From: Alphaproteobacteria bacterium
Lineage (GTDB): Bacteria; Pseudomonadota; Alphaproteobacteria; SP197
Direction of reading: 5' to 3'
Assembly (NCBI GenBank): GCA_964291265.2
Contig: OZ219747.1
Span: 3,072,001-3,136,000 of the forward strand
Length of the DNA stretch: 64,000 nucleotides
Shown one piece after another: positions 14,002-57,808 of this stretch; position 1 is the first letter of the stretch, and each line of letters starts with the position of its first letter. The notes beneath the pieces are model-generated. The model was not told the origin of the DNA. It did not search any database and worked only from the letters and a program-made list of their open reading frames with translations. A program made the position numbers and the translations under genes.

Positions 14002-14489
14002 GCGTTCGGAAACAGGCCGGGCGGGCGGCGAGGCCTTCGAGGACGCCCGATTCCCGTGCAGGGCACGGGCTGCGATGTTCGCACTCCCCTCAGTCCATTC
14101 GAATCCACGAACGCATCGGTGGTCCTGCCGGCAGCCATCGGAATGGCGGCTGGGAGAAGAGCGCGCGTCTCCGGTAGTCTGCGAGGATTCCAGAAATCTG
14201 CCGCTCCGGTCAGCACGCACCGGATGAGTAAGCGTTCGGCCGTGCGGTGACGGCCGATTTTGGTTGGTTTTGGGATTTGCTGACAACCGTCTGAGAAAGT
14301 GCTGGCAAGCATCCTCAACCGGTGAATATCACCAACAATCATCGCGCGACCGACCGCTTACCCCGAAGCCCTATTGGCAGGAAAGGACGCCCGGGAGACC
14401 TCAAGCACGATGACCTGCAAGCGTGCGGTCTTGCCCCGGTTTTCGCTCGGCATTCTCTCAGGCGCCGTCATCCCCTCATGAGCGAACGC

Positions 14490-14876
14490 TTACCGCTGCC
14501 TGGGCCTGGCGGCCAGCACATCATCAAGACTTGGGGCGGCCAGCACCGCCTCCGCCCAGGCTTCCAGTTCGGCGGACGAGGCGTTGCGGACCCGCTCGCG
14601 GACCGCATCCGGCACATCACCGAAGCGCAAGGACAGTTGACGAAGAAGAAGTTCCGCGAGGGCCTCGCTCCGGCCTCGTTCGAGTCCCCTCTGGAGTCCC
14701 CTCTCGATACCCTCGGCTCGTCCTCTCTCGATACCCTCGGCTCTTCCCCTCTCGATACCCTCGGCTCTTCCTCTCTCGATACCCTCGGCTCTTCCCCTCT
14801 CGAGTCCCTCGGCTCTTCCCCTCTCGAGTCCCTCGGATCTTCCCTGTTCGACCCAGGTTTGTGCGATCGTGCCCAT
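14490..14876 (-). CDS. putative internally initiated small Rpn product (RpnS-like), copy 1, 128 aa
   Basis: in-frame GGGAGGT-gttg-ATG GGC ACG ATC GCA (MGTIA). Confidence 0.6.
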   Translation of the reverse strand: MGTIAQTWVEQGRSEGLERGRAEGLERGRAEGIERGRAEGIERGRAEGIERGRAEGIERGLQRGLERGRSEALAELLLRQLSLRFGDVPDAVRERVRNASSAELEAWAEAVLAAPSLDDVLAARPRQR

Positions 14877-15671
14877 CAACACCTCCCAATGGTCCGGCTT
14901 CGTCCGGCGCAAAGACGCCTCCAGCATGGCCGGCGTCAGGCCCTTGTGCTCGGTCATGTAGCGCACAATATGGTGCTCGAAGTCGCTCCCTGCAAGCAGC
15001 CCGTCCATGATCACGTCGAGAAGATCGGGCGGTACCTCCTCGGCAAAGGCAAACCTGAGCGCCAGAAGAGCGGACCGCACCTCGGGCGAGGTCGACGGCC
15101 GGTCCGGCGCCATCTCCCCGAGGTCGTGCACCACATAGGCGAACTCCCTGACGAACGACTTCAGCTTCTCGGGCGCGTCGATCATCTTCAGCACCGAGCG
15201 CGCCGCCTTCCAGCGCCCCCGGCCGTGATAGAAGACCAGGGGGATGATCGCCGGCAGCTTGATGTCGTTCCCGCCGCCCTCGCTCTTGCTCCGCTCGCTC
15301 TTGCTCCGCTCGATCTCGCGCCGCCAGATGTTGACCATGTATCCCAGAAGCTGGAGCGGCGTCTCGGCGTCGACGTAGCTCTTGTGTTCGAGCAGCACGT
15401 AAAGGCGCGCATCTTTGCCGTCCTTCAATCTCACCCGGAACAGCGCATCGCACTGGGTGGTACGGGCGGCCTTGTCGACGAAACTCTCCCCAACCGCCTC
15501 GAACGGCGCCTCGGGATCGAGGAGTTCAGCCACCTTCCGCGGCAGGTAGTCGGTGAGCAGAGAAGCGGCACGGGACGGTTCGGAGACCAGTGCCCGGAAC
15601 AGCGTATCGTGTCGATTCACCGGAAGTCTCACCGAGCGAGACCCCGGCGTTTCAACGGGCATCGTGCTCAC
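14490..15671 (-). CDS. Rpn/YhgA family PD-(D/E)XK nuclease, copy 1
   Basis: HDTLF, QCDALF, LLEHKS, IIPLVFYHG motifs; C-terminal GRAEGIER repeats (6 units) and DUF4351-like tail. Confidence 0.9.
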   Translation of the reverse strand: MSTMPVETPGSRSVRLPVNRHDTLFRALVSEPSRAASLLTDYLPRKVAELLDPEAPFEAVGESFVDKAARTTQCDALFRVRLKDGKDARLYVLLEHKSYVDAETPLQLLGYMVNIWRREIERSKSERSKSEGGGNDIKLPAIIPLVFYHGRGRWKAARSVLKMIDAPEKLKSFVREFAYVVHDLGEMAPDRPSTSPEVRSALLALRFAFAEEVPPDLLDVIMDGLLAGSDFEHHIVRYMTEHKGLTPAMLEASLRRTKPDHWEVLMGTIAQTWVEQGRSEGLERGRAEGLERGRAEGIERGRAEGIERGRAEGIERGRAEGIERGLQRGLERGRSEALAELLLRQLSLRFGDVPDAVRERVRNASSAELEAWAEAVLAAPSLDDVLAARPRQR

Positions 15672-16106
15672 GGGTTGGAAGGGGGAAGGTGTTCGTCATG
15701 GCGGCACCCTACGCCGAACAGCACCAAGGCGGCAATCGCGGCGCCTGACCCGGGGTGAGGCCTGCCAGGCGTCAAGACCTCGATGGCGCTTGTTCCTCAG
15801 GTCGCCGCCATGCCCGTACTTCACTCGGGTGGCCTCAGCCCAAGCTATGGCCCCTCCCTATGCTGGGTTGTGGAACTGATAGAAGACCAGTGATCACCCG
15901 CGATTTTGGCAACAAACTTCAAGGTCACCAACCCGCCCTCGTCCCCGCCTTCGATACCTCAAGACCGCTTCGCTGCCTGCCGAAGCCATAGTGGCAGGAA
16001 AGGACGCCCGGGAGACCTCATGCACGATGACCTGCAAGCGTCCGGTCTTGCCCCGGTTTTCGCTCGGCATTCTCCCAAGCGCTGTCATCCCCTCATGAGC
16101 GAACGC

Positions 16107-16517
16107 TTACCGCTGCCTGGGCCTGGCGGCCAGCACATCATCAAGACTTGGGGCAGCCAGCACCGCCTCCGCCCAGGCCTCCAGTTCGGCGGCCGACGCG
16201 CCGCGCACCCGCTCGCGGACCGCATCCGGCACATCACCGAAGCGCAGGGACAGTTGACGAAGAAGAAGTTCCGCGAGGGCCTCGCTCCGGCCTCGTTCGA
16301 GTCCCCTCTGGAGTCCCCTCTCGAGTCCCTCGGCTCTTCCTCTCTCGATCCCTTCGGCTCTTCCTCTCTCGATACCCTCGGCTCTTCCTCTCTCGATACC
16401 CTCGGCTCTTCCTCTCTCGATACCCTCGGCTCTTCCTCTCTCGATACCCTCGGCTCTTCCCCTCTCGATACCCTCGGCTCTTCCCTGTTCGACCCAGGTT
16501 TGTGCGATCGTGCCCAT
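16107..16517 (-). CDS. putative RpnS-like product, copy 2, 136 aa
   Basis: same internal SD+ATG; unaffected by upstream frameshift. Confidence 0.6.
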   Translation of the reverse strand: MGTIAQTWVEQGRAEGIERGRAEGIERGRAEGIERGRAEGIERGRAEGIERGRAEGIERGRAEGLERGLQRGLERGRSEALAELLLRQLSLRFGDVPDAVRERVRGASAAELEAWAEAVLAAPSLDDVLAARPRQR

Positions 16518-17313
16518 CAACACCTCCCAATGGTCCGGCTTCGTCCGGCGCAGTGACGCCTCCAGCATGGCCGGCGTCAGGCCCTTGTGCTCGGTCATGT
16601 AGCGCACAATATGGTGCTCGAAGTCGCTCCCTGCAAGCAGCCCGTCCATGATCACGTCGAGAAGATCGGGCGGTACCTCCTCGGCAAAGGCAAACCTGAG
16701 CGCCAGAAGAGCGGACCGCACCTCGGGCGAGGTCGACGGCCGGTCCGGCGCCATCTCCCCGAGGTCGTGCACCACATAGGCGAACTCCCTGACGAACGAC
16801 TTCAGCTTCTCGGGCGCGTCGATCATCTTCAGCACCGAGCGCGCCGCCTTCCAGCGACCCCGGCCGTGATAGAAGACCAGGGGGATGATCGCCGGCAGCT
16901 TGATGTCGTTCCCGCCGCCCTCGCTCTTGCTCCGCTCGCTCTTGCTCCGCTCGATCTCGCGCCGCCAGATGTTGACCATGTATCCCAGAAGCTGGAGCGG
17001 CGTCTCGGCGTCGACGTAGCTCTTGTGTTCGAGCAGCACGTAGAGGCTTAGCATCTTGGCCGTCCTTCAATCTCACCCGGAACAGCGCATCGCACTGGGT
17101 GGTACGGGCGGCCTTGTCGACGAAACTCTCCCCAACCGCCTCGAACGGCGCCTCGGGATCGAGGAGTTCAGCCACCTTCCGCGGCAGGTAGTCGGTGAGC
17201 AGAGAAGCGGCACGGGACGGTTCGGAGACCAGTGCCCGGAACAGCGTATCGTGTCGATTCACCGGAAGTCTCACCGAGCGAGACCCCGGCGTTTCAACGG
17301 GCATCGTGCTCAC
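16107..17313 (-). pseudogene. Rpn/YhgA nuclease copy 2, frameshifted
   Basis: +1 nt relative to other copies at ~17048-17050 (TAGAGGCTTAGCATC vs TAGAGGCGCGCATC); 3' part intact with 7 repeat units; may be a sequencing error. Confidence 0.75.
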
Positions 17314-17748
17314 GGGTTGGAAGGGGGAAGGTGTTCGTCATGGCGGCACCCTACGCCGAACAGCACCAAGGCGGCAATCGCGGCGCCTGACCCGGGGTGA
17401 GGCCTGCCAGGCGTCAAGACCTCGATGGCGCTTGTTCCTCAGGTCGCCGCCATGCCCGTACTTCACTCGGGTGGCCTCAGCCCAAGCTATGGCCCCTCCC
17501 TATGCTGGGTTGTGGAACTGATAGAAGACCAGTGATCACCCGCGATTTTGGCAACAAACTTCAAGGTCACCAACCCGCCCTCGTCCCCGCCTTCGATACC
17601 TCAAGACCGCTTCGCTGCCTGCCGAAGCCATAGTGGCAGGAAAGGACGCCCGGGAGACCTCATGCACGATGACCTGCAAGCGTCCGATCTTGCCCCGGTT
17701 TTCGCTCGGCACTCTCTCAGGCGCCGTCATCCCCTCATGAGCGAACGC

Positions 17749-18051
17749 TTACCGTTGCCTGGGCCTGGCGGCCAGTACATCATCAAGACTTGGGGCGGCC
17801 AGCACCGCCTCCGCCCAGGCTTCCAGTTCGGCGGCCGACGCGCCGCGCACCCGCTCGCGGACCGCATCCGGCACATCACCGAAGCGCAGGGACAGTTGAC
17901 GAAGAAGAAGTTCCGCGAGGGCCTCGCTCCGGCCTCGTTCGAGTCCCCTCTCGATACCCTCGGCTCTTCCTCTCTCGATACCCTCGGCTCTTCCCCTCTC
18001 GATACCCTCGGCTCTTCCCTGTTCGACCCAGGTTTGTGCGATCGTGCCCAT
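17749..18051 (-). CDS. putative RpnS-like product, copy 3, 100 aa
   Basis: same internal SD+ATG. Confidence 0.6.
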   Translation of the reverse strand: MGTIAQTWVEQGRAEGIERGRAEGIERGRAEGIERGLERGRSEALAELLLRQLSLRFGDVPDAVRERVRGASAAELEAWAEAVLAAPSLDDVLAARPRQR

Positions 18052-18846
18052 CAACACCTCCCAATGGTCCGGCTTCGTCCGGCGCAAAGACGCCTCCAGC
18101 ATGGCCGGCGTCAGGCCCTTGTGCTCGGTCATATAGCGCACAATATGATGCTCGAAGTCGCTCCCTGCAAGCAGCCCGTCCATGATCACGTCGAGAAGAT
18201 CGGGCGGTACCTCCTCGGCAAAGGCAAACCTGAGCGCCAGAAGAGCGGACCGCACCTCGGGCGAGGTCGACGGCCGGTCCGGCGCCATCACCCCGAGGTC
18301 GTGCACCACATAGGCGAACTCCCTGACGAACGACTTCAGCTTCTCGGGCGCGTCGATCATCTTCAGCACCGAGCGCGCCGCCTTCCAGCGACCCCGGCCG
18401 TGATAGAAGACCAGGGGGATGATCGCCGGCAGCTTGATGTCGTTCCCGCCGCCCTCGCTCTTGCTCCGCTCGCTCTTGCTCCGCTCGATCTCGCGCCGCC
18501 AGATGTTGACCATGTATCCCAGAAGCTGGAGCGGCGTCTCGGCGTCGACCTGGCTCTTATGTTCGAGCAGCACGTAGAGGCGCGCATCTTTGCCGTCCTT
18601 CAATCTCACCCGGAACAGCGCATCGCACTGGGTGGTACGGGCGGCCTTGTCGACGAAACTCTCCCCAACCGCCTCGAACGGCGCCTCGGGATCGAGGAGT
18701 TCAGCCACCTTCCGCGGCAGGTAGTCGGTGAGCAGAGAAGCGGCACGGGACGGTTCGGAGACCAGTGCCCGGAACAGCGTATCGTGTCGATTCACCGGAA
18801 GTCTCACCGAGCGAGACCCCGGCGTTACAACGGGCATCGTGCTCAC
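17749..18846 (-). CDS. Rpn/YhgA nuclease copy 3
   Basis: same motifs; 3 repeat units. Confidence 0.9.
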   Translation of the reverse strand: MSTMPVVTPGSRSVRLPVNRHDTLFRALVSEPSRAASLLTDYLPRKVAELLDPEAPFEAVGESFVDKAARTTQCDALFRVRLKDGKDARLYVLLEHKSQVDAETPLQLLGYMVNIWRREIERSKSERSKSEGGGNDIKLPAIIPLVFYHGRGRWKAARSVLKMIDAPEKLKSFVREFAYVVHDLGVMAPDRPSTSPEVRSALLALRFAFAEEVPPDLLDVIMDGLLAGSDFEHHIVRYMTEHKGLTPAMLEASLRRTKPDHWEVLMGTIAQTWVEQGRAEGIERGRAEGIERGRAEGIERGLERGRSEALAELLLRQLSLRFGDVPDAVRERVRGASAAELEAWAEAVLAAPSLDDVLAARPRQR

Positions 18847-19284
18847 GGGCTGGAAGAGGGAAGGTGTTCGTCATGGCGGCACCCTACGCCGAACAGCACC
18901 AGGGCGGCAATCGCGGCGCCTGACCCGGGGTGAGGCCTGCCAGGCGTCAAGACCTCGATGGCGCTTGTTCCTCAGGTCGCCGCCATGCCCCCGTACTTCA
19001 CTCGGGTGGCCTCAGCCCAAGCTATGGCCCCTCCCTATGCTGGGTTGTGGAACTGATAGAAGACCAGTGATCACCCGCGATTTTGGCAACAAACTTCAAG
19101 GTCACCAACCCGCCCTCGTCCCCGCCTTCGATACCTCCAAGACCGCTTCGCTGCCTGCCGAAGCCGTATTGGCAGGAAAGGACACCCGGGAGACATCATG
19201 CACGATGACCTGCAAGCGTCCGGTCTTGCCCCGGTTTTCGCTCGGCATTCTCCCAAGCGCTGTCATCCCCTCATGAGCGAACGC

Positions 19285-19575
19285 TTACCGCTGCCTGGGC
19301 CTGGCGGCCAGCACATCATCAAGACTTGGGGCAGCCAGCACCGCCTCCGCCCAGGCCTCCAGTTCGGCGGCCGACGCGCCGCGCACCCGCTCGCGGACCG
19401 CATCCGGCACATCACCGAAGCGCAGGGACAGTTGACGAAGAAGAAGTTCCGCGAGGGCCTCGCTCCGGCCTCGTTCGAGTCCCCTCTGGAGTCCCCTCTC
19501 GAGTCCCTCGGCTCTTCCCCTCTCGATACCCTCGGCTCTTCCCTGTTCGACCCAGGTTTGTGCGATCGTGCCCAT
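19285..19575 (-). CDS. putative RpnS-like product, copy 4, 96 aa
   Basis: same internal SD+ATG. Confidence 0.6.
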   Translation of the reverse strand: MGTIAQTWVEQGRAEGIERGRAEGLERGLQRGLERGRSEALAELLLRQLSLRFGDVPDAVRERVRGASAAELEAWAEAVLAAPSLDDVLAARPRQR

Positions 19576-20355
19576 CAACACCTCCCAATGGTCCGGCTTC
19601 GTCCGGCGCAAAGACGCCTCCAGCATGGCCGGCGTCAGGCCCTTGTGCTCGGTCATGTAGCGCACAATATGGTGCTCGAAGTCGCTCCCTGCAAGCAGCC
19701 CGTCCATGATCACGTCGAGAAGATCGGGCGGTACCTCCTCGGCAAAGGCAAACCTGAGCGCCAGAAGAGCGGACCGCACCTCGGGCGAGGTCGACGGCCG
19801 GTCCGGCGCCATCTCCCCGAGGTCGTGCACCACATAGGCGAACTCCCTGACGAACGACTTCAGCTTCTCGGGCGCGTCGATCATCTTCAGCACCGAGCGC
19901 GCCGCCTTCCAGCGACCCCGGCCGTGATAGAAGACCAGGGGGATGATCGCCGGCAGCTTGATGTCGTTCCCGCCGCCCTCGCTCTTGCTCCGCTCGATCT
20001 CGCGCCGCCAGATGTTGACCATGTATCCCAGGAGCTGGAGCGGCGTCTCGGCGTCGACGTAGCTCTTATGTTCGAGCAGCACGTAGAGGCGCGCATCTTT
20101 GCCGTCCTTCAATCTCACCCGGAACAGCGCATCGCACTGGGTGGTACGGGCGGCCTTGTCGACGAAACTGCCCTCGACCGCCTCCGGCTGCGCCTTGGGG
20201 TCGAGGAGGTCAGCCACCTTCCGCGGCAGGTAGTCGGTGAGCAGAGAAGCGGCACGGGACGGTTCGGAGACCAGTGCCCGGAACAGCGCATCGTGCCGAT
20301 TCACCGGAAGTCTCACCGAGCGAGACCCCGGCGTTTCAACGGGCATCGCGCTCAC
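19285..20355 (-). CDS. Rpn/YhgA nuclease copy 4
   Basis: same motifs; 2 repeat units; single ERSKS; divergent N-terminal patch DPKAQPEAVEGS. Confidence 0.9.
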   Translation of the reverse strand: MSAMPVETPGSRSVRLPVNRHDALFRALVSEPSRAASLLTDYLPRKVADLLDPKAQPEAVEGSFVDKAARTTQCDALFRVRLKDGKDARLYVLLEHKSYVDAETPLQLLGYMVNIWRREIERSKSEGGGNDIKLPAIIPLVFYHGRGRWKAARSVLKMIDAPEKLKSFVREFAYVVHDLGEMAPDRPSTSPEVRSALLALRFAFAEEVPPDLLDVIMDGLLAGSDFEHHIVRYMTEHKGLTPAMLEASLRRTKPDHWEVLMGTIAQTWVEQGRAEGIERGRAEGLERGLQRGLERGRSEALAELLLRQLSLRFGDVPDAVRERVRGASAAELEAWAEAVLAAPSLDDVLAARPRQR

Positions 20356-20889
20356 GGGTTGGAAGAGGGAAGGTGTTCGTCATGGCGGCACCCTACGCCG
20401 AACAGCACCAAGGCGACAATCGCGGCGCCTGACCCGGAGTGAGGCCTGCCGGGCGTCAAGACCTCGATGGCGCTTGTTCCTCAGGTCGCCGCCATGCCCC
20501 CGTACTTCACTCGGGTGGCCTCAGCCCAAGCTATGGCCCCTCCCTATGCTGTGTTGTGGAACTGATAGGAGACCAGTGATCACCCGCGATTTTGGCAACA
20601 AACTTCAAGGTCACCAACCCGCCCCCGCCTTCGATACCTCAAGACCGCTTCGCTGCCTGCCGAAGCCGTATTGGCAGGAAAGGACGCCCGGGAGACCTCA
20701 TGCACGATGACCTGCAAGCGTCCGGTCTTGCCCCGGCATTCGCTCGGCACTCTCCCAGGCGCCGTCATCCCCTCATGAGCGAACGCTTACCCGGATGACG
20801 GCGGTGAACAGCGACCGGCGTCTGGCCTGTTGTCTGCATTGCGGGTATGATCGATTCTCCAGACTTCGTCATGCGTCCGATGGTGCCAC

Positions 20890-41098: not shown

Positions 41099-41686
41099 AT
41101 GCCACGGCGCCATCACCATCCCCCCTCCGCCATGGCCCTGCGCGTCGCCGCTCTCGAGCAGCTGCTGACGGACAAGGGTTACTGTGATCCCGACACGATC
41201 GATCGACTCGTGGAGCTCTACGAGACCAGGGTCGGGCCGCACCATGGCGCCAGGGTGGTGGCGCATGCGTGGAGTGACGCCGCCTTCCACGAACGCCTCC
41301 TCGCGAACGCCTCGCACGCCATGGCGGGGCTCGGCATATCGGGCATGCAGGGCGAGAACATGGTGGTCGTGGAAAACACGTCCCATGTCCACAACGTGGT
41401 CGTCTGTACCCTGTGTTCGTGCTATCCGTGGCCCGTCCTCGGCCTGCCGCCGCGCTGGTACAAGAGCGAGCCCTACCGGGCGCGCGTCGTGCGTGAGCCA
41501 CGGGCCGTGCTGACCGAGATGGGGTGTGACGTGGCGGACGACGTGGAGGTCCGCGTCTGGGACTCGAGTGCGGACCTGCGCTACATGGTCCTGCCGCAGC
41601 GTCCTCCAGGCAGCGACGATCTCACCCGCGAGGAGCTTGCCGGTCTCGTGACGCGCGATGGCATGATCGGCGTGGCCAGAGTATGA
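41099..41686 (+). CDS. nthA: nitrile hydratase alpha subunit (cobalt-type)
   Basis: metal motif VCTLCSCY; WYKS..YRAR. Confidence 0.93.
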
Positions 41687-41696
41687 CGAGAGCGCC

Positions 41697-42380
41697 ATGG
41701 ACGGCATTCACGACATGGGCGGCATGATGGGTTTCGGCGTCGTCGCGCATCAGACGGACGAGCCACTGTTCCATGACGACTGGGAGAGGGTGGCCTTCGG
41801 ACTTCTCCTTCAGGCATCGGGGAGGGTCGGCTTCTCGGATGATCACCTGCGCGCCCACATCGAGCGCATACCGCCTCTGGCCTACCTCCAGGCAAGCTAC
41901 TACGAGCGCTGGATCCGCGCGCTGGAGTCCTTTCTGGAGGAACGCGGACTCCTGTCATCGGCCGCCGTCGAGGCCTGCATGGCCGGAATGGCCGGACCGA
42001 CACGCCCCGCCGGCGGCAGGGGCGCCACTCTCGACGACATCGAGGAGGCCGTGGCAGGAGGGGCATCGACGCGGCGCGATGGCGCCGGAACGCCGGCGCG
42101 ATTCCGTTCCGGTGACCGGGTGCGGGTCCTCAACGAGCACCCGTGCCATCATACCCGTGCTCCGCGCTACACGAGGGGACGCATCGGCGAGGTCGTCCGT
42201 GATCATGGTGTCTTCGTGTATCCCGACACCCATGCCCGTGACCTCGGCGAGTGTCCGGAACACTGTTACACGGTGACGTTCGGGGCTCACGAACTGTGGG
42301 GTGCGCACACACCCCTGTCGGATGTCGTCAACGTCGACCTCTACGAGTCCTATCTCGAGGCGGTCGACCCACCCGCCTGA
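41697..42380 (+). CDS. nthB: nitrile hydratase beta subunit
   Basis: MDGIHDMGG, SYYERW, HTRAPRY, YESYL. Confidence 0.92.
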   Translation: MDGIHDMGGMMGFGVVAHQTDEPLFHDDWERVAFGLLLQASGRVGFSDDHLRAHIERIPPLAYLQASYYERWIRALESFLEERGLLSSAAVEACMAGMAGPTRPAGGRGATLDDIEEAVAGGASTRRDGAGTPARFRSGDRVRVLNEHPCHHTRAPRYTRGRIGEVVRDHGVFVYPDTHARDLGECPEHCYTVTFGAHELWGAHTPLSDVVNVDLYESYLEAVDPPA

Positions 42381-42803
42381 GGGATGCACGCGGGGATGCG
42401 TCATGGTGCTCCGGGACAGCGACAACTCACCGACGAGGTTGCCGTGATCGTGTCATGCTGAATTCCGATCACTGCCCGCCCCTGCTGACCATGGATTGAT
42501 GGCCCGCGGCGCAGGGCGCCACGGAGCGGGGCCTCGCGTTGGCGGACCCGTACGTGACGGCGGAACCTGCCTGCCTGCTCGACGATGCGCCGGCCGGCAG
42601 GAGACGACGGGGGCGATCGACGCGGTGTGCGTTTCGGCCCGGCAACCGGCCCCGACCATCCTCGATCGCCCGGTCCCCGGCGCTGCCGGGCGCGGCACGT
42701 GTTGCGGCCAGCCCGCGGACGGGTTATGGATTGCATCGATGGGATCGTTGCGCTCTTGCGGGCGTGGCGGCCTGGACTGCGCGACGGCGGGAGGACGAGC
42801 ATC

Positions 42804-45382
42804 ATGACGCGAGCGCCTCACGCGCGCGAACCCCAGAATTTCGTACCCCCCCCCCCTCAAGAGTCCGGGCGCGGGGCTGAGCCGGTGGGCGCCCTCGGGA
42901 GAACCGTCCGCCGCCTGAGCGCGGAACTCGCTGCCCTCTTCCTCATCACGCTGGCCGCCGCCCTCGCGCCCCAGGACGCACAGGCGCAGGAGAAGCCGGC
43001 GCTCACGGCAACCGCGGGTGTCGGCAGTGTCACACTCACCTGGACTCGTACCGGCAACACTGGATTTGGATATTGGGTCTACCGACAGGGGGTCACCGGA
43101 GGAGGTTACGGCGACTGGATCGATATACCGGGCGGCGCCACCATCAGAGCCCACACGGTCACAGGGTTGACCGCCGGCACCTCCTATACCTTCCAGGTGG
43201 CAAGGGCAGAAGGTACCGGTCTCAACTTTTCCGTCTTCGCTAGTGGGGGAGGGTACTCGAACGGGGCGTCAGCTACGCCGACGGCGGCCACGACCACGAC
43301 GCCCGCCGCCCCGACGAACCTGACGGCGACGGGGGCCGGCACCACACAGGTGTTGCTGACGTGGACCAAGCCGGCCGGCACGATCACCGGCTACAAGCTG
43401 CGCTACGCCAAGACACCGGCAAAGGGCAGCGCCACCTGGGCCGCCATGGCGGGTTCGGGCGCGAACACCGTGAGGCATATGGTAACGGGGCTGGAAGACG
43501 ACGCCGAATACAGTTTCATGATCCGCGCCGTGAACGCCTCCGGCGACGGCGCCGCCACGGACTGGGTGACGGCGACGCCTGCGGACAGCTGCCCTTCCGT
43601 GCTCAGCCCGACGAACCTGAGTCTCGCGCCGCGTTCGGACGGGTTTGTCGTCACCTGGACGGCGCCGACCGATGTCTTCCGCAACGGCTGGACGTTGTCT
43701 TACGGCAAGACCGGGGAAAGTTCGACCTCTGTCACCATCTCGAATGCCGCCGCGACCAGCCGCACGCTGACCGGTCTGGACGCCAACACCGAATATGAGA
43801 TCAGTCTTACAGCGACCCATTCTACTTATAATCCTTCTGCGGTCTGTCCTCCAGGCTTCCGTGTAAAAGCCACCGGCACTACCGGCGCCACCGTCGCCAA
43901 ACCCGCGGCGCCGACGGGGTTGTCGGCGGAGGCGGGCAACGGTCAGGTGGAACTGACCTGGACCGACCCGGACGACGATTCGATCACGAGGTATCAGGTG
44001 CGCCAGAAGAAGGGCGGCGCCGCCTGGGGCAGTTGGACCGCGATTCCCGATTCGGACGCCGACACCACGACCCACACGGTGACGGGTCTGACGAACGACA
44101 GCGAGTACCGCTTCCGCATCCGGGCGCGGAACAGCGGCGGCAACGGCGCCGCGTCGGCGGTGGTGGAGGCGACGCCGTCGGCGTCGGCGGCGGTTCCCAA
44201 GCCGGTGCTGAGCGCCGAAGCGGGTTACGCCAGGGTCACCCTGAGCTGGAGCGCGCTGTCGGGTGTGACGGTAGCGAGCTGGGGCTATCAGTACAAGCCC
44301 GCGGGCGGCAGCTGGATCAGGACCCGGACGGTCACGGGCGCCAGCACGACGAGCACCACGGTGACGGGACTGACGATCGGCACGGAATACACGTTCCGGC
44401 TGTTTGCGGCAGTCAGTCCCGGGGTGCAGTCGGTGTGGTCGGACCAGGTGAAGGCGACGCCGACGAATACGGTTCCCAAGCCGGTTCTGACGGCGGCGGG
44501 GGGCGATGCCTCGGTCACCCTGAGCTGGAACGCCTTGACGGGCATTCCGATCACGAGCTGGGGCTATCAGTACAAGAGCACGGCCGGCTGGAACACGACC
44601 ACGACGCTCACGGGCGCAAGCAGGACGAGCGTCCGGGTGACGGGGCTGACGAAGGGCACGGACTACACGTTCCGCCTGTTCGCGGCGGTCAGTCCCGGTG
44701 TGCAGTCGGTGTGGTCGGATCAGGTGACGGCGAAGACCGATCCGGCGGCCCCGGTGCTGACGGCGGCGACTTCGACGACGAACGGGCGGATCGACCTGAC
44801 CTGGACCCATGCCGGCGGCTCGAACGAGTTGTCGGATGCGGACGACTATGTGAAAGACGCGGCCAAGTTCCATTGGTGGAGAGCGCAGACCCGGCTGAAG
44901 GGTGAGACCGTCTGGACGGATAGCGGTCTCAACCAGGCGAGTGCCAGACAGCAACCGGGTTCTCGCAACAATCGGCTTCTGCTGAACTATCCCGACGGGG
45001 CATCGGTCGAGGTCCGGGTTCGGGCAACGGGCTATCGCATGGCGGGTGTGGCCGGGGGAACGGGGAACCTTCAGGGTCCCTGGTCGAACGTCCGTACGGT
45101 GACCTTCAAGGACGACGACACGGCGGCTCTCACGCTGACCGGGACGCCGGTGACGGTGGCGCCCGGTTCCACGGCGACCTACACGGTGGCCTTGACGAAG
45201 GCCTATGCGGGGACGCTGCGGGTGACGAGCGACGACACGGCGGCGGCGCGGGTCAGTCCGGCGAGCCTGACCTTTACCACCAGCAACTACAGCACGGCGC
45301 GGACGGTGACGGTGACCGGGGTGGCGAACGGCACGGCGGTGATCAACCACGCCTTCCGGCTGACGGGAGCTTCTGCGGATGC
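42804..45382 (+). CDS. FN3-repeat autotransporter-like adhesin, exon 1
   Basis: SD GGAGGA, signal peptide ending AQA, multiple FN3 modules (V.L.W..Y..VTGL..Y.F); ends at the intron 5' splice site. Confidence 0.85.
42846..42856 (+). repeat. C11 homopolymer in 5' end of adhesin gene
   Basis: GTA CCC CCC CCC CCT. Confidence 0.85.
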
Positions 45383-47158
45383 GTGCAGCGAGTCTAGCTG
45401 CTGTACTTGCGGGTGAAAGTCCCGCCGGCGCAATTGTCAGTTTGGCGCCGTAGCATATCCCACTGGTTTAGGGGCGACCTTGGACCAGCGAGCTGGGACG
45501 TAGAAAGCCGTTGTGGGCTGGCTGGGACACAGTGCCCAGCCGGTTCGGTCAGCCAGGGCGGCGAGCAAACCGGAGGGCCGTAGCGAAAGCGAACGATTGG
45601 ATGAAGCCACGAAATGATGCTCCCACACGAAGCTGATTTGTGGGGTGGTCGGGAATGCCAAGGGCGTGGATCCGGCCCGATGGCCAGAGTCGATGCGGAA
45701 GAACTGATGAGCACGCATCGGGTTCCCCGGGGTACAGACGGCGGCAATCCGGGACAGTACAGCAGTGAAAGGCCGGAAGGTGAGGAGGACAGACAGGATG
45801 AAGTGACCCTTGAATGTCAAGGACCGCGTCTATAACCAGGATTGGGAAAGGACGCGGAGTCCTCCTGACTGGCGGATGAGGTCGAGTAAGCGTTGACGGG
45901 CGGGACAACACAACCCGTCCCGAGCGAGGACCTCAGGGCTCAGGTGGCCTATGCGGCAGGTCAAGTCGGTACTCAGAGACCGGCACCGACCGACAGACTG
46001 CAAGGTCGAAGGACGGAGCAAACGCTCGGAGATGCCGTGGGTATGGTTGGGTCAGCCTTGACCATGGCGTGTGCGGCGGAAGGCTCCGCACCGAACTCCA
46101 AGTGGGTGCCTGATGCTTGAAGCCGTACCCGGGAAAACCGGACGTACGGAATTTTAGGGGGGCGTGCAGCGAGTCTAGCTGCTGTACTTGCGGGTGAAAG
46201 TCCCGCCGGCGCAATTCCCAGTTTGGCGCCGTAGCATATCCCACTGGTACAGGGGTGACCCTGGGCCAGCGAGCTGGGATGTAGAAGCCGCTGTGGGCTG
46301 GCTGGAACGCAGTGTCCAGTTGGTCTGGTCAGCCAGGGCGGCGAGCGAACCGGAGGGCCGTAGCGAAAGCGAACGATTGTACGAAGCCTCGAAAATGAAA
46401 TTTCCCACATGAAGCTGACTTGTGGGGTGTTGGGAACGCCAAGGGCCTGCCCCCAGCTTGGTGGCCAGAGTCGATGCGGAAGAACTGGGGAGCACGCATC
46501 GGGTTCCCCGTGGTAGAGACGACGGCAATCCGGGACAGTACAGCAGTGAAAGGCCGGAAGGTGAGGAGGACAGACAGGATGAAGTGACCCTTGAATGTCA
46601 AGGACCGCGTCTATAACCAGGACTGGGAAAGGACGCGGAGTCCTCCTGACTGGCGGATGAGGTCGAGTAAGCGTTGACGGGCGGGACAACACAACCCGTC
46701 CTGAGCGAGGACCTCAGGGCTCAGGTGGCTTATGCGGCAGGTCAAGTCGGTACTCAGAGACCGGCACCGACCGACAGACTGCAAGGTCGAAGGACGGAGC
46801 AAACGCTCGGAGATGCCGTGGGTATGGTCGGGTCAGCCTTGACCATGGCGTGTTCGGCGGAAGGCTCCGCACCGAACTCCAAGTGGGTGCCTGATGCTTG
46901 AAGCCGTACCCGGGAAAACCGGACGTACGGAATTTTAGGGAGGCTGCTGGAAACGTGGTCTATGGTAGTTCTGCGACCCCGCCCGCAATCGAAAGAGCGG
47001 TGCCGGACAAAGCCTCTGCCTACGGATGCGCGCGCCAGCGGCCTACCCGACTGCTGGAAACGTGGTCTATGGGAGAACTGCGACCCCGCCCGCAATCGAA
47101 AGAGCGGTGACGGACAAAGCCTCTGCCTACGGATGCGCGCGCCAGTGGCCTACCCGAC
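45383..47158 (+). mobile_element. ORF-less group IIB intron, outer (888 nt: 45383-46163 + 47052-47158)
   Basis: 5' GTGCAG; domain V AAGCCGTACCCGGGAAAACCGGACGTACGG (~46120-46153); 3' end CCTACCCGAC with bulged A; removal restores frame. Confidence 0.9.
46164..47051 (+). mobile_element. ORF-less group IIB intron, inner (888 nt), nested in domain VI of the outer intron
   Basis: 5' GTGCAG at 46164, domain V ~46901-46934, 3' CCTACCCGAC at 47051; EBS1 GCCCCC complements upstream GGGGGC. Confidence 0.9.
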
Positions 47159-49931
47159 GATTCCCGACGCGGGCACGGTGGACGTGACGGTGGCCGATAC
47201 GCCGGGGGTGACGGTGTCGACGGCGGCGCTGACGGTGGCGGAAGGCGGCAGCAGGACGTACACGATGCGGCTGAACACGCCGCCGTCATCGGATGTGACG
47301 ATCACGGTGGCGGGCGCGTCGGGGGACGTGACGGTGACGGGCGCGTCGCTGACCTTCACCCGGACCAACTGGAACCAGCCGCAGACGGTGACGGTGAACG
47401 CAGGCACGGACACGGACACGGCGGTGGACCCCGCCGTGACGCTGACCCACAGCGCCTCTGGCGGCGGCTACGGCTCGGTGACCATCGCCTCTGTGGTGGT
47501 GAGCGTGGCGGAGAAGGATGTGGCGCCCGGGAAACCGACAGGCCTTGCCGGCGCGGCGGGCAACGGTTCGGTGACGCTGAGCTGGACCGCCCCGGACAAT
47601 CCGACCATCACCAAGTGGCAGGTGCGGCGGAAGGCCGGCAGCGACGACTGGGGCGCGTGGGAGGACATTCCCGGCTCCGCTGCGGGCACCACCAGCTACG
47701 AGGTGAGCGGTCTGACGAACGGCACTGCCTACCAGTTCGAGGTGCGCGCGGTGAACGGGGCCGGCAACGGCGCCGGTCCGGATGCGCCGGTGACGGCGAC
47801 GCCGGCGGCGCCGGTGGCGCCCGGCGGAGGCGGCGGTGGCGGTGGCGGTGGCGGAGGCGGCACGACGCCCACCGCAGACGCAAGCGTGACGGTGACACCG
47901 ACCGCGCTGACGGTGGCGGAGGGGAGCAGTGCCGTCTACACGGTGGTGCTGGACACGGAACCCTCGGGCGAGGTCACGGTGACGGTGGGCGGCGCTTCGG
48001 GCGAGGTGACGGTGGAACCGGCGAGCCTGACCTTCACCACGGCCAACTGGGACACGGCGCAACGGGTGACGGTGCGCGCGGCCCGTGACGAGGACACGAC
48101 CGACGACACGGCGACGCTGACCCATGGTGCGAGCGGCGGGGGCTACGCTTCGGTGACCATCGATTCGGTGGCGGTGACGGTGACGGACACAACGCTCCTG
48201 CCGGTGCTGACCCTGGCGCAGGATCCGGCGGCGGTGACCGAGGGCGAGGCCATCCGCCTCGTGGTGAGCGCCGACCGGGCGCTGACGGGCAGCCTGAGGG
48301 TGAGCCTGACCCTGGCGTCCCGGGACGGCGGCGGCTTCGATGCCGGGGACGTTCCAGGCGGCCTGGGTCCGCGTTCGTTCGATGCGGTGTTCGGCGCCGC
48401 GGGGCGGCGAACGGGCGTGGTGACGATCCCGACGGCGGCCGATGCGGATGCGGAAGGCGCGGAAGCCTACCGCATCACGCTGAACGATGCGGCGGACTAC
48501 GTGGTGGGGAACGACGCCACGGCGCTTGGCGTTCTGCGCGACCGGGCGGCGGGGGCCATGGCAAGGTCGAACCGGGTGAATGCGGCGGTGCTGCCGCACG
48601 TGGCGGCGGCGGCGATGTCGCAGACCCTGGGGGCGGTGACGGGTCGCATCGAGGCGGTGGCCTCCGGCGAGGGGGGCGGCACGGTGCAGTTCGGCGCCCT
48701 GCCGTCACCGGTGGAGGACGCGTGGGCGTCGCCGCACCCGGAGGAGCCCGGCCCGAGCATGGCGGAGGTGCTGGACGGCGCCTCCTTCACCCTGGCGGCG
48801 GGCGCCGAGGGCGAGGCCTCCGCGCCGCCGCTGGCCGTGTGGGGCCGGGGCGAGTGGCTGTCGCTGTCGGGTTCGCAAGGCGGCGTGTCGTGGGACGGCG
48901 GCCTGTGGTCGGCGCAGCTGGGGGCGGACGTGCGCCTGCGCCCCGACCTTCTGGCCGGGGCGGCGCTCTCCCATGTGCGGGGCGAGCTGGACACGCAGAC
49001 GGACCAGGTGAAGGGCGTCCACGAGACCACGATCACGTCGGTGCATCCCTATGCGGCGTGGTTGCTGGCGGACGGCTCGACCCTGTGGGCGAGCCTCGGC
49101 TACGGGACCGGCGAGGTGCGGATTGCCGAGGAGGGGGCGCCGGTGATGAGCACGGACCTGGCGCAGTGGAGCGCGGCGGCGGGCGCCCGCAGCGTCCTCA
49201 TCGAGCATGCGGACCTCATCGAGGGCGGCATGACGCGCCTTGCGGTCAAGGGCGAGGGCGCGCTGGCGCGCCTGCGCACGGGGTCCGATGACGGCCTGGC
49301 GGGGCTGACGGCGAGGACGACCCGCCTGCGGCTGCTGCTGGAGGGGTCGCACGAGCACGCGCTGGCAAGCGGTGCGACGCTGACCCCGGCCCTGGAGGCG
49401 GGGGTGCGCCATGACGCGGGCGACGCCGCCGAGGGGGCGGGCCTCGAGGCCGGGGCGAGCGTGACATGGCGGGACCCGGCGGAGGGTCTGACGGCGGAGC
49501 TGCGCACGCGGCTCCTGGCGGCCCACGAGGCGGACCGTGACGAGTGGGGTGTGAGCGCCCTGGTGCGCCTCGACCCCGGGGCCGACGGGCTTGGAACCTT
49601 CCTTGCCTTCGGTCCCGCGCACGGGCGCACCGAGAGTGATCTGGGAGAACTGTTCGACCACGGCCTGCCCGCGGCGGCATCGGGTACGACATCGGCAGAG
49701 GGCCGCCTGGAGGCCGAGGTGGGCCACGGCTTCGGCCTTGCCGGTCCGGGGCCTCTCGCGGTGCTCACCCCCTGGGCGGGCTTGAGCCTGGCGGAGACCG
49801 GCGGGCGCACCCTGCGGCTCGGCACCCGCTACCGCCTCGGCGCGGGGCTCTCCCTCGGCCTCGAGGGCGCGCACCGGCCGGGGCCGGTCAGCGAAGACAG
49901 CCTCATGCTGCGCGGCGCCCTCAACTGGTAG
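47159..49931 (+). CDS. adhesin exon 2: Ig-like/FN3 repeats, Gly13 linker, C-terminal autotransporter-type beta-barrel
   Basis: in frame with exon 1 after splicing (GC|G ATT CCC = A-I-P); amphipathic beta-strand C-terminus ending LRGALNW. Confidence 0.85.
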
Positions 49932-55640: not shown

Positions 55641-55824
55641 CAAGACTATTCTTTTGTCCAGGTTCGCCCGACGAGGGGGCGGCGTAGGCAGATCTGGAGG
55701 TTCATTCGGGACCGGATTTCGTTGTCGATATGCCGGTTCCGACCTCGAGAAGGAACACCACTCACTTCAAGAACGGCCACTGACGCGGTTGTCCACCGCC
55801 GATCGCGACAACAGAATGGTCCTG
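55641..55824. repeat. MITE-like element, left copy (184 bp)
   Basis: imperfect 18-bp TIRs; direct-repeat similarity to 57627-57808. Confidence 0.8.
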
Positions 55825-57626: not shown

Positions 57627-57808
57627 CAAGGGCTATTTTTGTCCGGTTTCGTCCGACGAGGAGGCGTTGCAGGCAGATCGGGAGGTCCATTCGGGAGCGG
57701 ATTTCGTTATCGATATGCCGGTTCCGACCTCGAGAAGGTGCCACCAACTTCAAGAACGGCCACTCTGACGCAGTTGTCCACCGCCGATTGCGACAAAGAA
57801 TGGTCCTG
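57627..57808. repeat. MITE-like element, right copy (182 bp)
   Basis: same orientation as left copy; shares TCGATATGCCGGTTCCGACCTCGAGAAGG and ACTTCAAGAACGGCCACT blocks. Confidence 0.8.

Follow-up and report, generated by a model that had tools for sequence, protein, structure and literature searches.

How did two nearly identical group II introns, neither of which carries a reverse transcriptase (RT), come to be nested one inside the other in the gene for a putative surface adhesin, and does the arrangement serve the gene or the intron? A sequence-only reading of the window (the whole 64,000-nt stretch of DNA analyzed here, from a genome of two contigs and 4.83 Mb) had recognized an ORF-less twintron and proposed that it may act as a post-transcriptional gate on a surface protein. 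Our analysis upholds the twintron, its location in domain VI, and the restoration of the reading frame, while it speaks against the gate and brings out what that reading had overlooked, the retargeting of the exon-binding sequences (EBS) of the inner intron. The main point of this locus is not the adhesin but the target of the inner intron, at the junction of domains V and VI (DV/DVI) of its sibling, together with the missing cognate RT.

Layout of the twintron

The coordinates, the division into two 888-nt introns, and the insertion into the 5' strand of domain VI all held on re-reading. The outer intron consists of a 5' part at 45383-46163 (+), comprising domains I to V and the first 7 nt of domain VI, and a 3' part at 47052-47158 (+), comprising the remainder of domain VI with the predicted branch adenosine at 47152; together they make up 888 nt. 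Between them lies the inner intron (46164-47051, +), also 888 nt long, inserted at GGGGGGC|TGCTGG within domain VI's basal stem, on the 5' strand. Both introns begin with GTGCAG (45383 and 46164), a position-5 variant of the group II consensus GUGYG, and both end with CCTACCCGAC (47051 and 47158), that is, in CCGAC with the expected 3' AY. They are identical at 835 of 890 aligned columns (94%) and differ at 55. As expected of a twintron, the nesting is precise, there is no target duplication, and the host site is intact in an outer copy lacking the inner intron (S6, described below).

The Rfam search suggested by the sequence-only reading gave a divided answer. The domain I-IV model RF02003 (group-II-D1D4-4) matched both 5' parts (68 bits versus a cut-off of 49), in keeping with a multi-domain fold (z of -3.99 against 20 shuffles), while RF00029, the domain V/VI model, was silent in the window region even at an E of ≤1 and matched no copy of the ORF-less family among the 150 of 255 candidates scored in the genome. 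An ORF search found no RT or maturase frame in either intron, as had been claimed.

Public sequencing runs bear on the integrity of the locus. A 742-nt contig from run X4, which belongs to the same study as the other three runs and is not study-independent, spans the junction between outer and inner introns, extending 90 nt to one side of it and 228 nt to the other. No contig joint that skips the 888-nt inner intron was found among those listed for the runs; a loose contig end at 46965 in X1 might represent an empty outer allele. Joints in X1 and X2 that skip 1,776 nt were considered as evidence of splicing and rejected, since the intron-less paralogs described below explain them.

A variant domain V

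The outer domain V (46118-46156, +) was identified from its partition function. It has an AGC triad (46121-46123) and an AC bulge at canonical spacing, a 5-nt GAAAA loop, and an extra AA bulge (46150-46151) opposite the triad, whose bases are predicted to pair with 46153, 46152, and 46149. This variant is conserved in at least 116 loci. In domain VI, folding predicts a bulged adenosine at position -7 in both the inner intron (47045, +) and the restored outer intron. The inner intron retains an intact predicted branch adenosine along with full EBS pairing (see below), which argues against its being degenerate.

Exon-binding sites and the target of the inner intron

At the adhesin site, outer EBS1 (GGATCC, 45668-45673, +) forms five of six pairs with IBS1 (GGATGC, 45377-45382, +), and outer EBS2 (GATGCTC, 45616-45622, +) pairs with IBS2 (GAGCTTC, 45367-45373, +) with one U-U mismatch; a candidate EBS3 (C at 45735, +) pairs with the G at +1 of exon 2. 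For the inner intron, EBS1 (GCCCCC, 46449-46454, +) forms six of six Watson-Crick pairs with GGGGGC (46158-46163, +), the last six bases before the insertion, which belong to the 5' strand of the outer domain VI basal stem. Its EBS2 (TGAAATTTC, 46396-46404, +) forms nine consecutive pairs with GGAATTTTA (46148-46156, +), the 3' strand of the outer domain V opposite the catalytic triad. Its candidate EBS3 (G at 46516, +) makes a wobble with the U at 47052. The divergence between inner and outer introns is greatest in the EBS1 and EBS2 loops. Judged by sequence complementarity, the exon-binding loops of the inner intron fit its own sibling at the point where domain V adjoins domain VI.

These assignments were evaluated on 43 aligned intron copies from the window genome and other genomes, with EBS positions that were first chosen by eye in the window genome and then transferred elsewhere by alignment column. 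For EBS1, 111 of 120 positions over 20 distinct sequences were Watson-Crick paired, compared with a shuffle mean of 45.1 and maximum of 69 (none of 20,000 shuffles reached the observed value). For EBS2, the summed pairing run over 23 distinct sequences was 140, against a mean of 86.6 and a maximum of 110 (0 of 3,000). The candidate EBS3 (nt 353 of the inner intron) was Watson-Crick complementary to position +1 in 29 of 37 copies, the best among all variable columns; this count omits six copies with unresolved 3' ends and retains redundant copies. The base is C in outer introns (+1 G), G in the divergent host T2 (+1 C), and G in the inner intron (+1 U), with a mismatch in the inner intron of the second twintron described below. 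T2 has a different EBS1 and EBS2 that fit its own exon, yet it contains the same inner intron.

The inner intron has its own copy of the target (GGAGGC, 46939-46944, +), in which a G-to-A change at 46941 creates a mismatch to its EBS1 and preserves the domain VI stem. On GGAGGC as compared with GGGGGC, the EBS1 hexamer duplex weakens from -12.5 to -6.2 kcal/mol, and with flanks from -13.9 to -10.2 kcal/mol. None of the six inner copies is invaded. We propose that this substitution could protect the inner intron from self-insertion.

Copies in the genome and their spread

A search for further copies, suggested by the sequence-only reading, uncovered a total of six twintrons: on contig C2 at 486719 (-), 1366526 (+), 4091336 (-), and as a head-to-tail pair at 3772762/3770986 (-), in addition to the one in the window. 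The inner intron is 100% identical at all six loci and is always nested, never free-standing. In a seventh full-length outer copy, S6 (3658598, +), the site of the inner intron is empty; a 1.96-kb insertion sequence flanked by an 8-bp duplication, presumably IS1634-like, lies 20 nt downstream. Five of the hosts differ from one another by 4 to 8 nt, and T2 differs from them by 36 to 40 nt. There are 13 variable columns among the five near-identical hosts and 47 among all six, versus 0 in the equally long inner intron; under joint movement of the two introns as a unit, with the same rate of change in each, the 13-to-0 contrast has a P of ~2e-4. Six additional fragments of the ORF-less family are present in the genome.

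The outer introns occupy unrelated sites. T2 lies at what we take to be the end of an IS66-like element, and T4 and S6 lie in what appears to be an ISAs1-like transposase gene, in the antisense orientation; seven close empty copies of the latter element were found. At T1 and T5, no convincing reading frame spans the junction. Variable sites among the hosts are mosaic and mutually incompatible, a pattern that suggests some recombination among hosts, which could homogenize the inner copies as well. The sequences flanking the insertion (88 nt on its 5' side and 107 nt on its 3' side) hardly vary among hosts.

Several further loci were noted. At G000:C2:3769211-3772762 (-), the two head-to-tail twintrons form a four-intron stack between a single exon pair in an ISAs1-like element; their outer introns differ at five positions, which fits a second homing event at the 5' junction of the first. 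The last 68 nt of an internally deleted outer intron remain at G000:C2:3544651-3544718, at an IS66-end site of the T2 type, and a remnant at ~3580494-3580590 has both intron ends and a different EBS. Within the window, a 102-nt repeat (55652-55753 and 57637-57738) lies upstream of AAA-ATPase-like genes, and the 3' exon of T5 consists of a sequence resembling it.

GC skew places the replication origin at ~0.65 to 0.72 Mb and the terminus at ~3.25 to 3.32 Mb. With respect to these, all six filled hosts are oriented with the fork and the sole unfilled full-length host, S6, against it, a contrast that depends on this one host with its adjoining insertion sequence. The RT-encoding introns of the genome are co-directional with the fork in 15 of 16 cases (14 of 16 with a finer terminus). 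Endonuclease-minus introns use a fork-primed pathway, according to the accessible part of a review of group II introns (PMC4424553), and the orientation of the filled hosts fits such a pathway; insertion of the inner intron may likewise follow the fork.

An invariant inner intron in varying hosts, including T2, argues for recent, separate homing into pre-existing hosts, as was argued for Thermosynechococcus elongatus in the portion of that report available to us (PMC2882425). We consider it probable that the inner intron behaves as a parasite on introns like itself and that it reached siblings already scattered around the genome by retrohoming, with RT likely supplied in trans.

Splicing order

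The IBS1 of the inner intron coincides with the 5' strand of the outer domain VI basal stem, both below and above the branch adenosine (47152). Folding of 46100-47175 left this strand unpaired with its own 3' strand. Binding of IBS2 would require the triad helix of the host to be open, and the two active sites could not fold together; on this model, the inner intron likely splices before the outer. The order may not be strict, since seven pairs around the outer branch adenosine could bridge the insertion (-10.7 kcal/mol, as compared with -22.7 kcal/mol in the restored domain). In the proposed course of events, the inner intron would leave first, the rebuilt outer intron would then splice, probably inefficiently, to give the full adhesin mRNA, and the mismatched EBS3 bases would disfavor use of the partner intron's 3' splice site.

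The host gene and its paralogs

Exon 1 (42585-45382, +) encodes the FN3-repeat passenger of an autotransporter, with six stretches matching PF00041, and exon 2 (47159-49931, +) encodes one FN3 repeat and the autotransporter beta-domain (PF03797, 36.9 bits; cut-off, 26). The label adhesin is putative and derives from this architecture. Excision of both introns joins GAT GC|G ATT CCC without internal stops, and the in-frame D-A-I-P join described earlier is borne out; the ~1,783-aa length given for the product counts from Met74, while the frame from the ATG at 42585 encodes 1,856 aa. Without splicing, the frame stops at 45416 and yields 943 aa lacking the beta-barrel, so that poor splicing, if it occurs, would mainly produce a barrel-less passenger from this copy. 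An ATG in domain VI of the inner intron opens a 989-aa frame (46962-49931) through the outer tail and all of exon 2; it is probably a chance frame, although translation of unspliced RNA from it could yield the barrel alone. The adhesin gene is directly preceded by genes for the alpha and beta subunits of nitrile hydratase (41099-42380) and directly followed by a TRAP transporter. Elsewhere in the window, 14323-20791 is occupied by a tandem array of four to five ~1.5- to 1.6-kb units, each with a YhgA-like (Transposase_31) gene whose short C-terminal repeats vary; there appears to be a frameshift in the second unit, and further copies exist elsewhere in the genome.

The genome also contains five paralogs without introns, which are 95 to 96% identical over 1,200 nt around the junction and read SAD|AIP; four of the five are open to the same C terminus, and four have the identical empty site. 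They answer the question of colinearity across the A-I-P junction, raised by the sequence-only reading, and together with their empty sites they fix the splice sites independently. The adhesin site is the weakest match for the outer intron: with its incomplete EBS1 and mismatched EBS2, the predicted duplex is -6.7 kcal/mol, as compared with -10.0 to -11.1 kcal/mol at three other sites of introns with the same EBS1. The paralogs make the adhesin gene redundant. For the outer intron it is likely just one incidental place of insertion, tolerated by the host, and not a regulated switch.

A helper reverse transcriptase

The search for a trans-acting RT, which had been proposed with the twintron, did not reveal a cognate enzyme in this genome; it revealed 16 intact frames from an unrelated RT intron. 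PF00078 gave 18 matches. Sixteen are intact frames of a single 494-aa group II RT/maturase (356 bits with TIGR04416; cut-off, 300), another is a fragment of it, and the last is a truncated RT of a different kind. We assume the 16-copy intron to be of class E. Its RNA showed no similarity to the ORF-less family either by BLASTN or with a 38-sequence family profile. The truncated RT at C2:1340273 was considered as the cognate enzyme and rejected, since neither BLASTN nor the family profile gave a match. At G000:C2:1339360-1340600 (+), a truncated group II intron of a different kind, with a 206-aa RT fragment, has inserted into a fragmentary copy of the main RT intron. The 16-copy RT is the only intact helper candidate, and its assignment is a guess, because the intact frames belong to an intron without detectable RNA similarity to the family; the alternative is an RT that was lost or present only transiently.

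Among genomes bearing the family, 32 of 35 have an RT match. Within the genus, such a match is found in all eight genomes with traces of the family and in 3 of 12 without, a comparison confounded by kinship and assembly quality. One genome (G002) has a full solo copy without a close homolog of the RT of the window genome. A shared domain IVa hairpin, detected with a regular expression in 12 of 38 family members, is present in too few to count as evidence. The RT intron of this genome also has ~16 ORF-deleted derivatives of ~660 nt (for example, at C2 376771-377434), many of them inside IS66-like elements, which constitute a second, conventional non-autonomous family.

The ORF-less lineage in other genomes

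When GTDB genomes were searched for this form of domain V, the 116 or more loci were found in Pseudomonadota, Acidobacteriota, Myxococcota, Bacillota, Binatota, and other phyla. None of the 66 listed loci with at least 2 kb of upstream sequence (several per genome) has an RT frame ending near domain V, and from its sequences the lineage looks ORF-less throughout. One genome (G065, found via L051) has 37 matches in two subfamilies, 25 with GGGAGG and 12 with GGGGGG, a large gene-less expansion. Seven solo members (L033, L058, L070, L077, L091, L107, and L010 of G002) lie in domain I of RT-type introns, at several positions, and EBS1 and EBS2 match at each site.

Among the matches listed, L032, from a member of the Paracoccaceae, is a twintron with the insertion at the same position. 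Its outer intron is 849 nt and its inner intron 853 nt (795 of 853 positions identical); the inner EBS1 is CCCTCC, and its EBS2 (GAAATTCT) matches GGAATTTC of the host. When 23 of the 43 copies are placed on a tree, both inner introns group with their respective hosts (100/100), and a single clade for the two inner introns is rejected (p-AU, 2.7e-7), a result that gene conversion with the host could mimic. On the tree, the L032 twintron arose independently of that in the window genome.

The GGGAGG variant was considered as a marker of inner introns and rejected: free-standing relatives have it, and the 10 copies fetched from G065 are not nested in domain VI of a sibling. The EBS1 of the L032 inner intron fits its own site better than that of its host. 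For these two reasons, self-immunity is a local reading only, confined to the window genome. Two loci taken up as possible domain VI insertions, L059 and L074, were likewise dropped, being ordinary or decayed domain VI sequences.

The DV/DVI arrangement appears rare in the genomes searched, where incomplete and short-read assemblies could hide cases. Its junction pattern occurred only in the genome of L032 among 401 genomes of that family, and only in the window genome among 33 genomes of its order (0 of 32 others). The single match in JGI metagenomes, inside coding sequence, is attributable to chance. BLASTN of the inner intron against plasmids gave no match, and the domain V pattern had 0 matches in viral contigs.

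We advance tentatively, and with more doubt than confidence, a broader reading in which a widespread, constitutively gene-less lineage of non-autonomous retroelements lives on the RTs of other introns and has given rise at least twice to hyperparasites of the triad and branch-stem strand of their siblings, the one stretch that those siblings would be unable to alter, so that inner-first splicing would be forced by folds that exclude each other and a single G-to-A change would confer self-immunity.

Comparison with known systems

The comparisons that follow are confined to the accessible portions of the cited reports. Homing into intron ORFs of Methanosarcina acetivorans was reportedly described, going by the title, by Dai and Zimmerly in 2003. 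Nested introns of this archaeon resemble the present case in their repeated, site-specific homing into other group II introns and differ in that the flanking exons are non-coding (PMC4424553).

The closest likeness in arrangement is offered by TeI3 (F3) and TeI4 (F1) of T. elongatus, where an ORF-less inner intron is identical in all copies, the related outer introns have diverged, and the EBS diverge between them; the identical inner introns were read as recent independent homing (PMC2882425). Identical inner introns in diverged outers are also what we find. In T. elongatus, however, the outer intron encodes an intron-encoded protein (IEP) and the insertion lies between two ATGs in domain IV (PMC2882425), whereas in the window both introns are ORF-less, no related IEP is found in the genome, and the target is the domain V 3' strand and the domain VI basal stem. 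Tr.e.I7/I8 of Trichodesmium erythraeum is a bacterial group II twintron inside a protein-coding gene for which sequential splicing has been demonstrated; there, distantly related IEP-encoding introns are combined, with the inner in domain I, at a single conserved locus (PMC4649490). In the psbF twintron of Euglena gracilis, too, the inner group II intron occupies a domain of the outer that is essential for catalysis (domain V), but this twintron is organellar and degenerate, and the accessible text gives no sign of current mobility or of sibling EBS retargeting (PMC8393795). An intron within a near copy of itself is known from the lycophyte cox1i1149g2 "zombie" twintron; that insertion lies in domain IV, the inner intron is dead, and the outer splices without it (PMC7049729), while the inner intron in the window appears intact from its sequence and has multiplied.

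C.te.I1 of Clostridium tetani is also found in a surface-protein gene, in a genome without a related IEP (PMC3919590), and is ORF-less (PMC4424553). It differs in being one intron with repeated DV/DVI units and alternative 3' exons rather than a mobile element that is nested and present in multiple copies (PMC3919590). With bacterial class E/F (IIE/IIF) introns, the window introns share a 5-nt domain V loop (here GAAAA), EBS1, EBS2, and a likely EBS3 (PMC3753933), and they match RF02003; they differ in lacking an IEP, including one of lineage E/F in domain IV, and in their extra AA bulge in domain V, their 888-nt length, their long domain VI, and the absence of an RF00029 match.

As far as these partial sources go, precedents from T. 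elongatus, Trichodesmium, Euglena psbF, lycophyte mitochondria, and C. tetani cover each ingredient singly. We found no report in the open-access literature of a bacterial ORF-less intron with EBS1 and EBS2 retargeted to a sibling DV/DVI junction. Some members of the ORF-less lineage may already appear in published intron tables or in the Calgary database.

Alternative explanations

The outer intron might splice with the inner still inside it, in one step, and the 1,776-nt composite might move as one unit. The insertion lies just above the 4 bp flanking the branch adenosine, so that a 7-bp basal domain VI stem could bridge it, composites account for six of the seven full-length hosts, tandem pair included, and outer introns of plant mitochondrial twintrons can splice without the inner, as the available part of that report states (PMC7049729). 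Movement as one unit would nevertheless be expected to leave changes in both parts, not 13 in the outer and none in the inner, and the divergent T2 contains the same inner intron. The inner intron also lacks decay, the reported zombie case involves a dispensable domain IV in the text accessible (PMC7049729), and the 46100-47175 fold leaves the outer 5' strand apart from its partner; we regard this account as unlikely. Another possibility is that a single inner insertion was followed by DNA-level gene conversion among outer copies, without any RT. The absence of a cognate RT, the near-invariant 88 and 107 nt around the insertion, and the mosaic variable sites would all be accommodated. Conversion, however, gives no reason for the excess of filled alleles (six of seven) or for the fork direction, and the outer introns themselves, found at five exon junctions that are unrelated to one another and each fitted by its EBS/IBS pairs, call for reverse splicing and an RT, which makes conversion alone quite improbable.

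We give very little credence to the remaining biological alternative, that the twintron has been domesticated by its host to control adhesin expression through splicing. The twintron does lie in the sense strand of a surface-protein gene, its removal restores the frame, and an ORF-less intron shapes surface-layer isoforms in C. tetani, according to the accessible portion of that study (PMC3919590). Exact frame restoration is no evidence of selection, since any precise group II insertion gives it, and the gate proposed by the sequence-only reading does not sit well with the five paralogs that lack introns (four of which stay open as far as the same C terminus), with five twintron copies elsewhere, with the weakest EBS/IBS match of the four sites compared, or with a junction pattern missing from all 32 other genomes of the order. 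An assembly artefact or plain tandem duplication, the possibility that the sequence-only reading had itself held out against its parse, could give two near-identical 781-nt blocks and two 107-nt blocks. The order of the blocks is nested, not tandem, and the two copies differ mostly in clusters at the EBS loops, which fit the nested junction; the 55 differing columns, the recurrence at six loci with different outer introns and in a second genome, and the contig from run X4 that bridges the junction make an artefact so unlikely that it can for practical purposes be set aside. Retrohoming of the inner intron into scattered siblings is the account that we retain.

Implications

Judged by its sequences, this family has a variant domain V, escapes RF00029, and was recently mobile in the window genome without a related IEP. 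The twintron offers a compact natural pair of introns, 94% identical and differing mainly in their EBS loops. It raises the questions of whether a non-cognate maturase or RT can mobilize an intron, whether one ribozyme, in binding its exon, can inactivate another whose domain V it unzips, and whether a single base can confer self-immunity. It also leads to the prediction that censuses based on RF00029 would undercount such elements and that their host genes would be annotated as broken.
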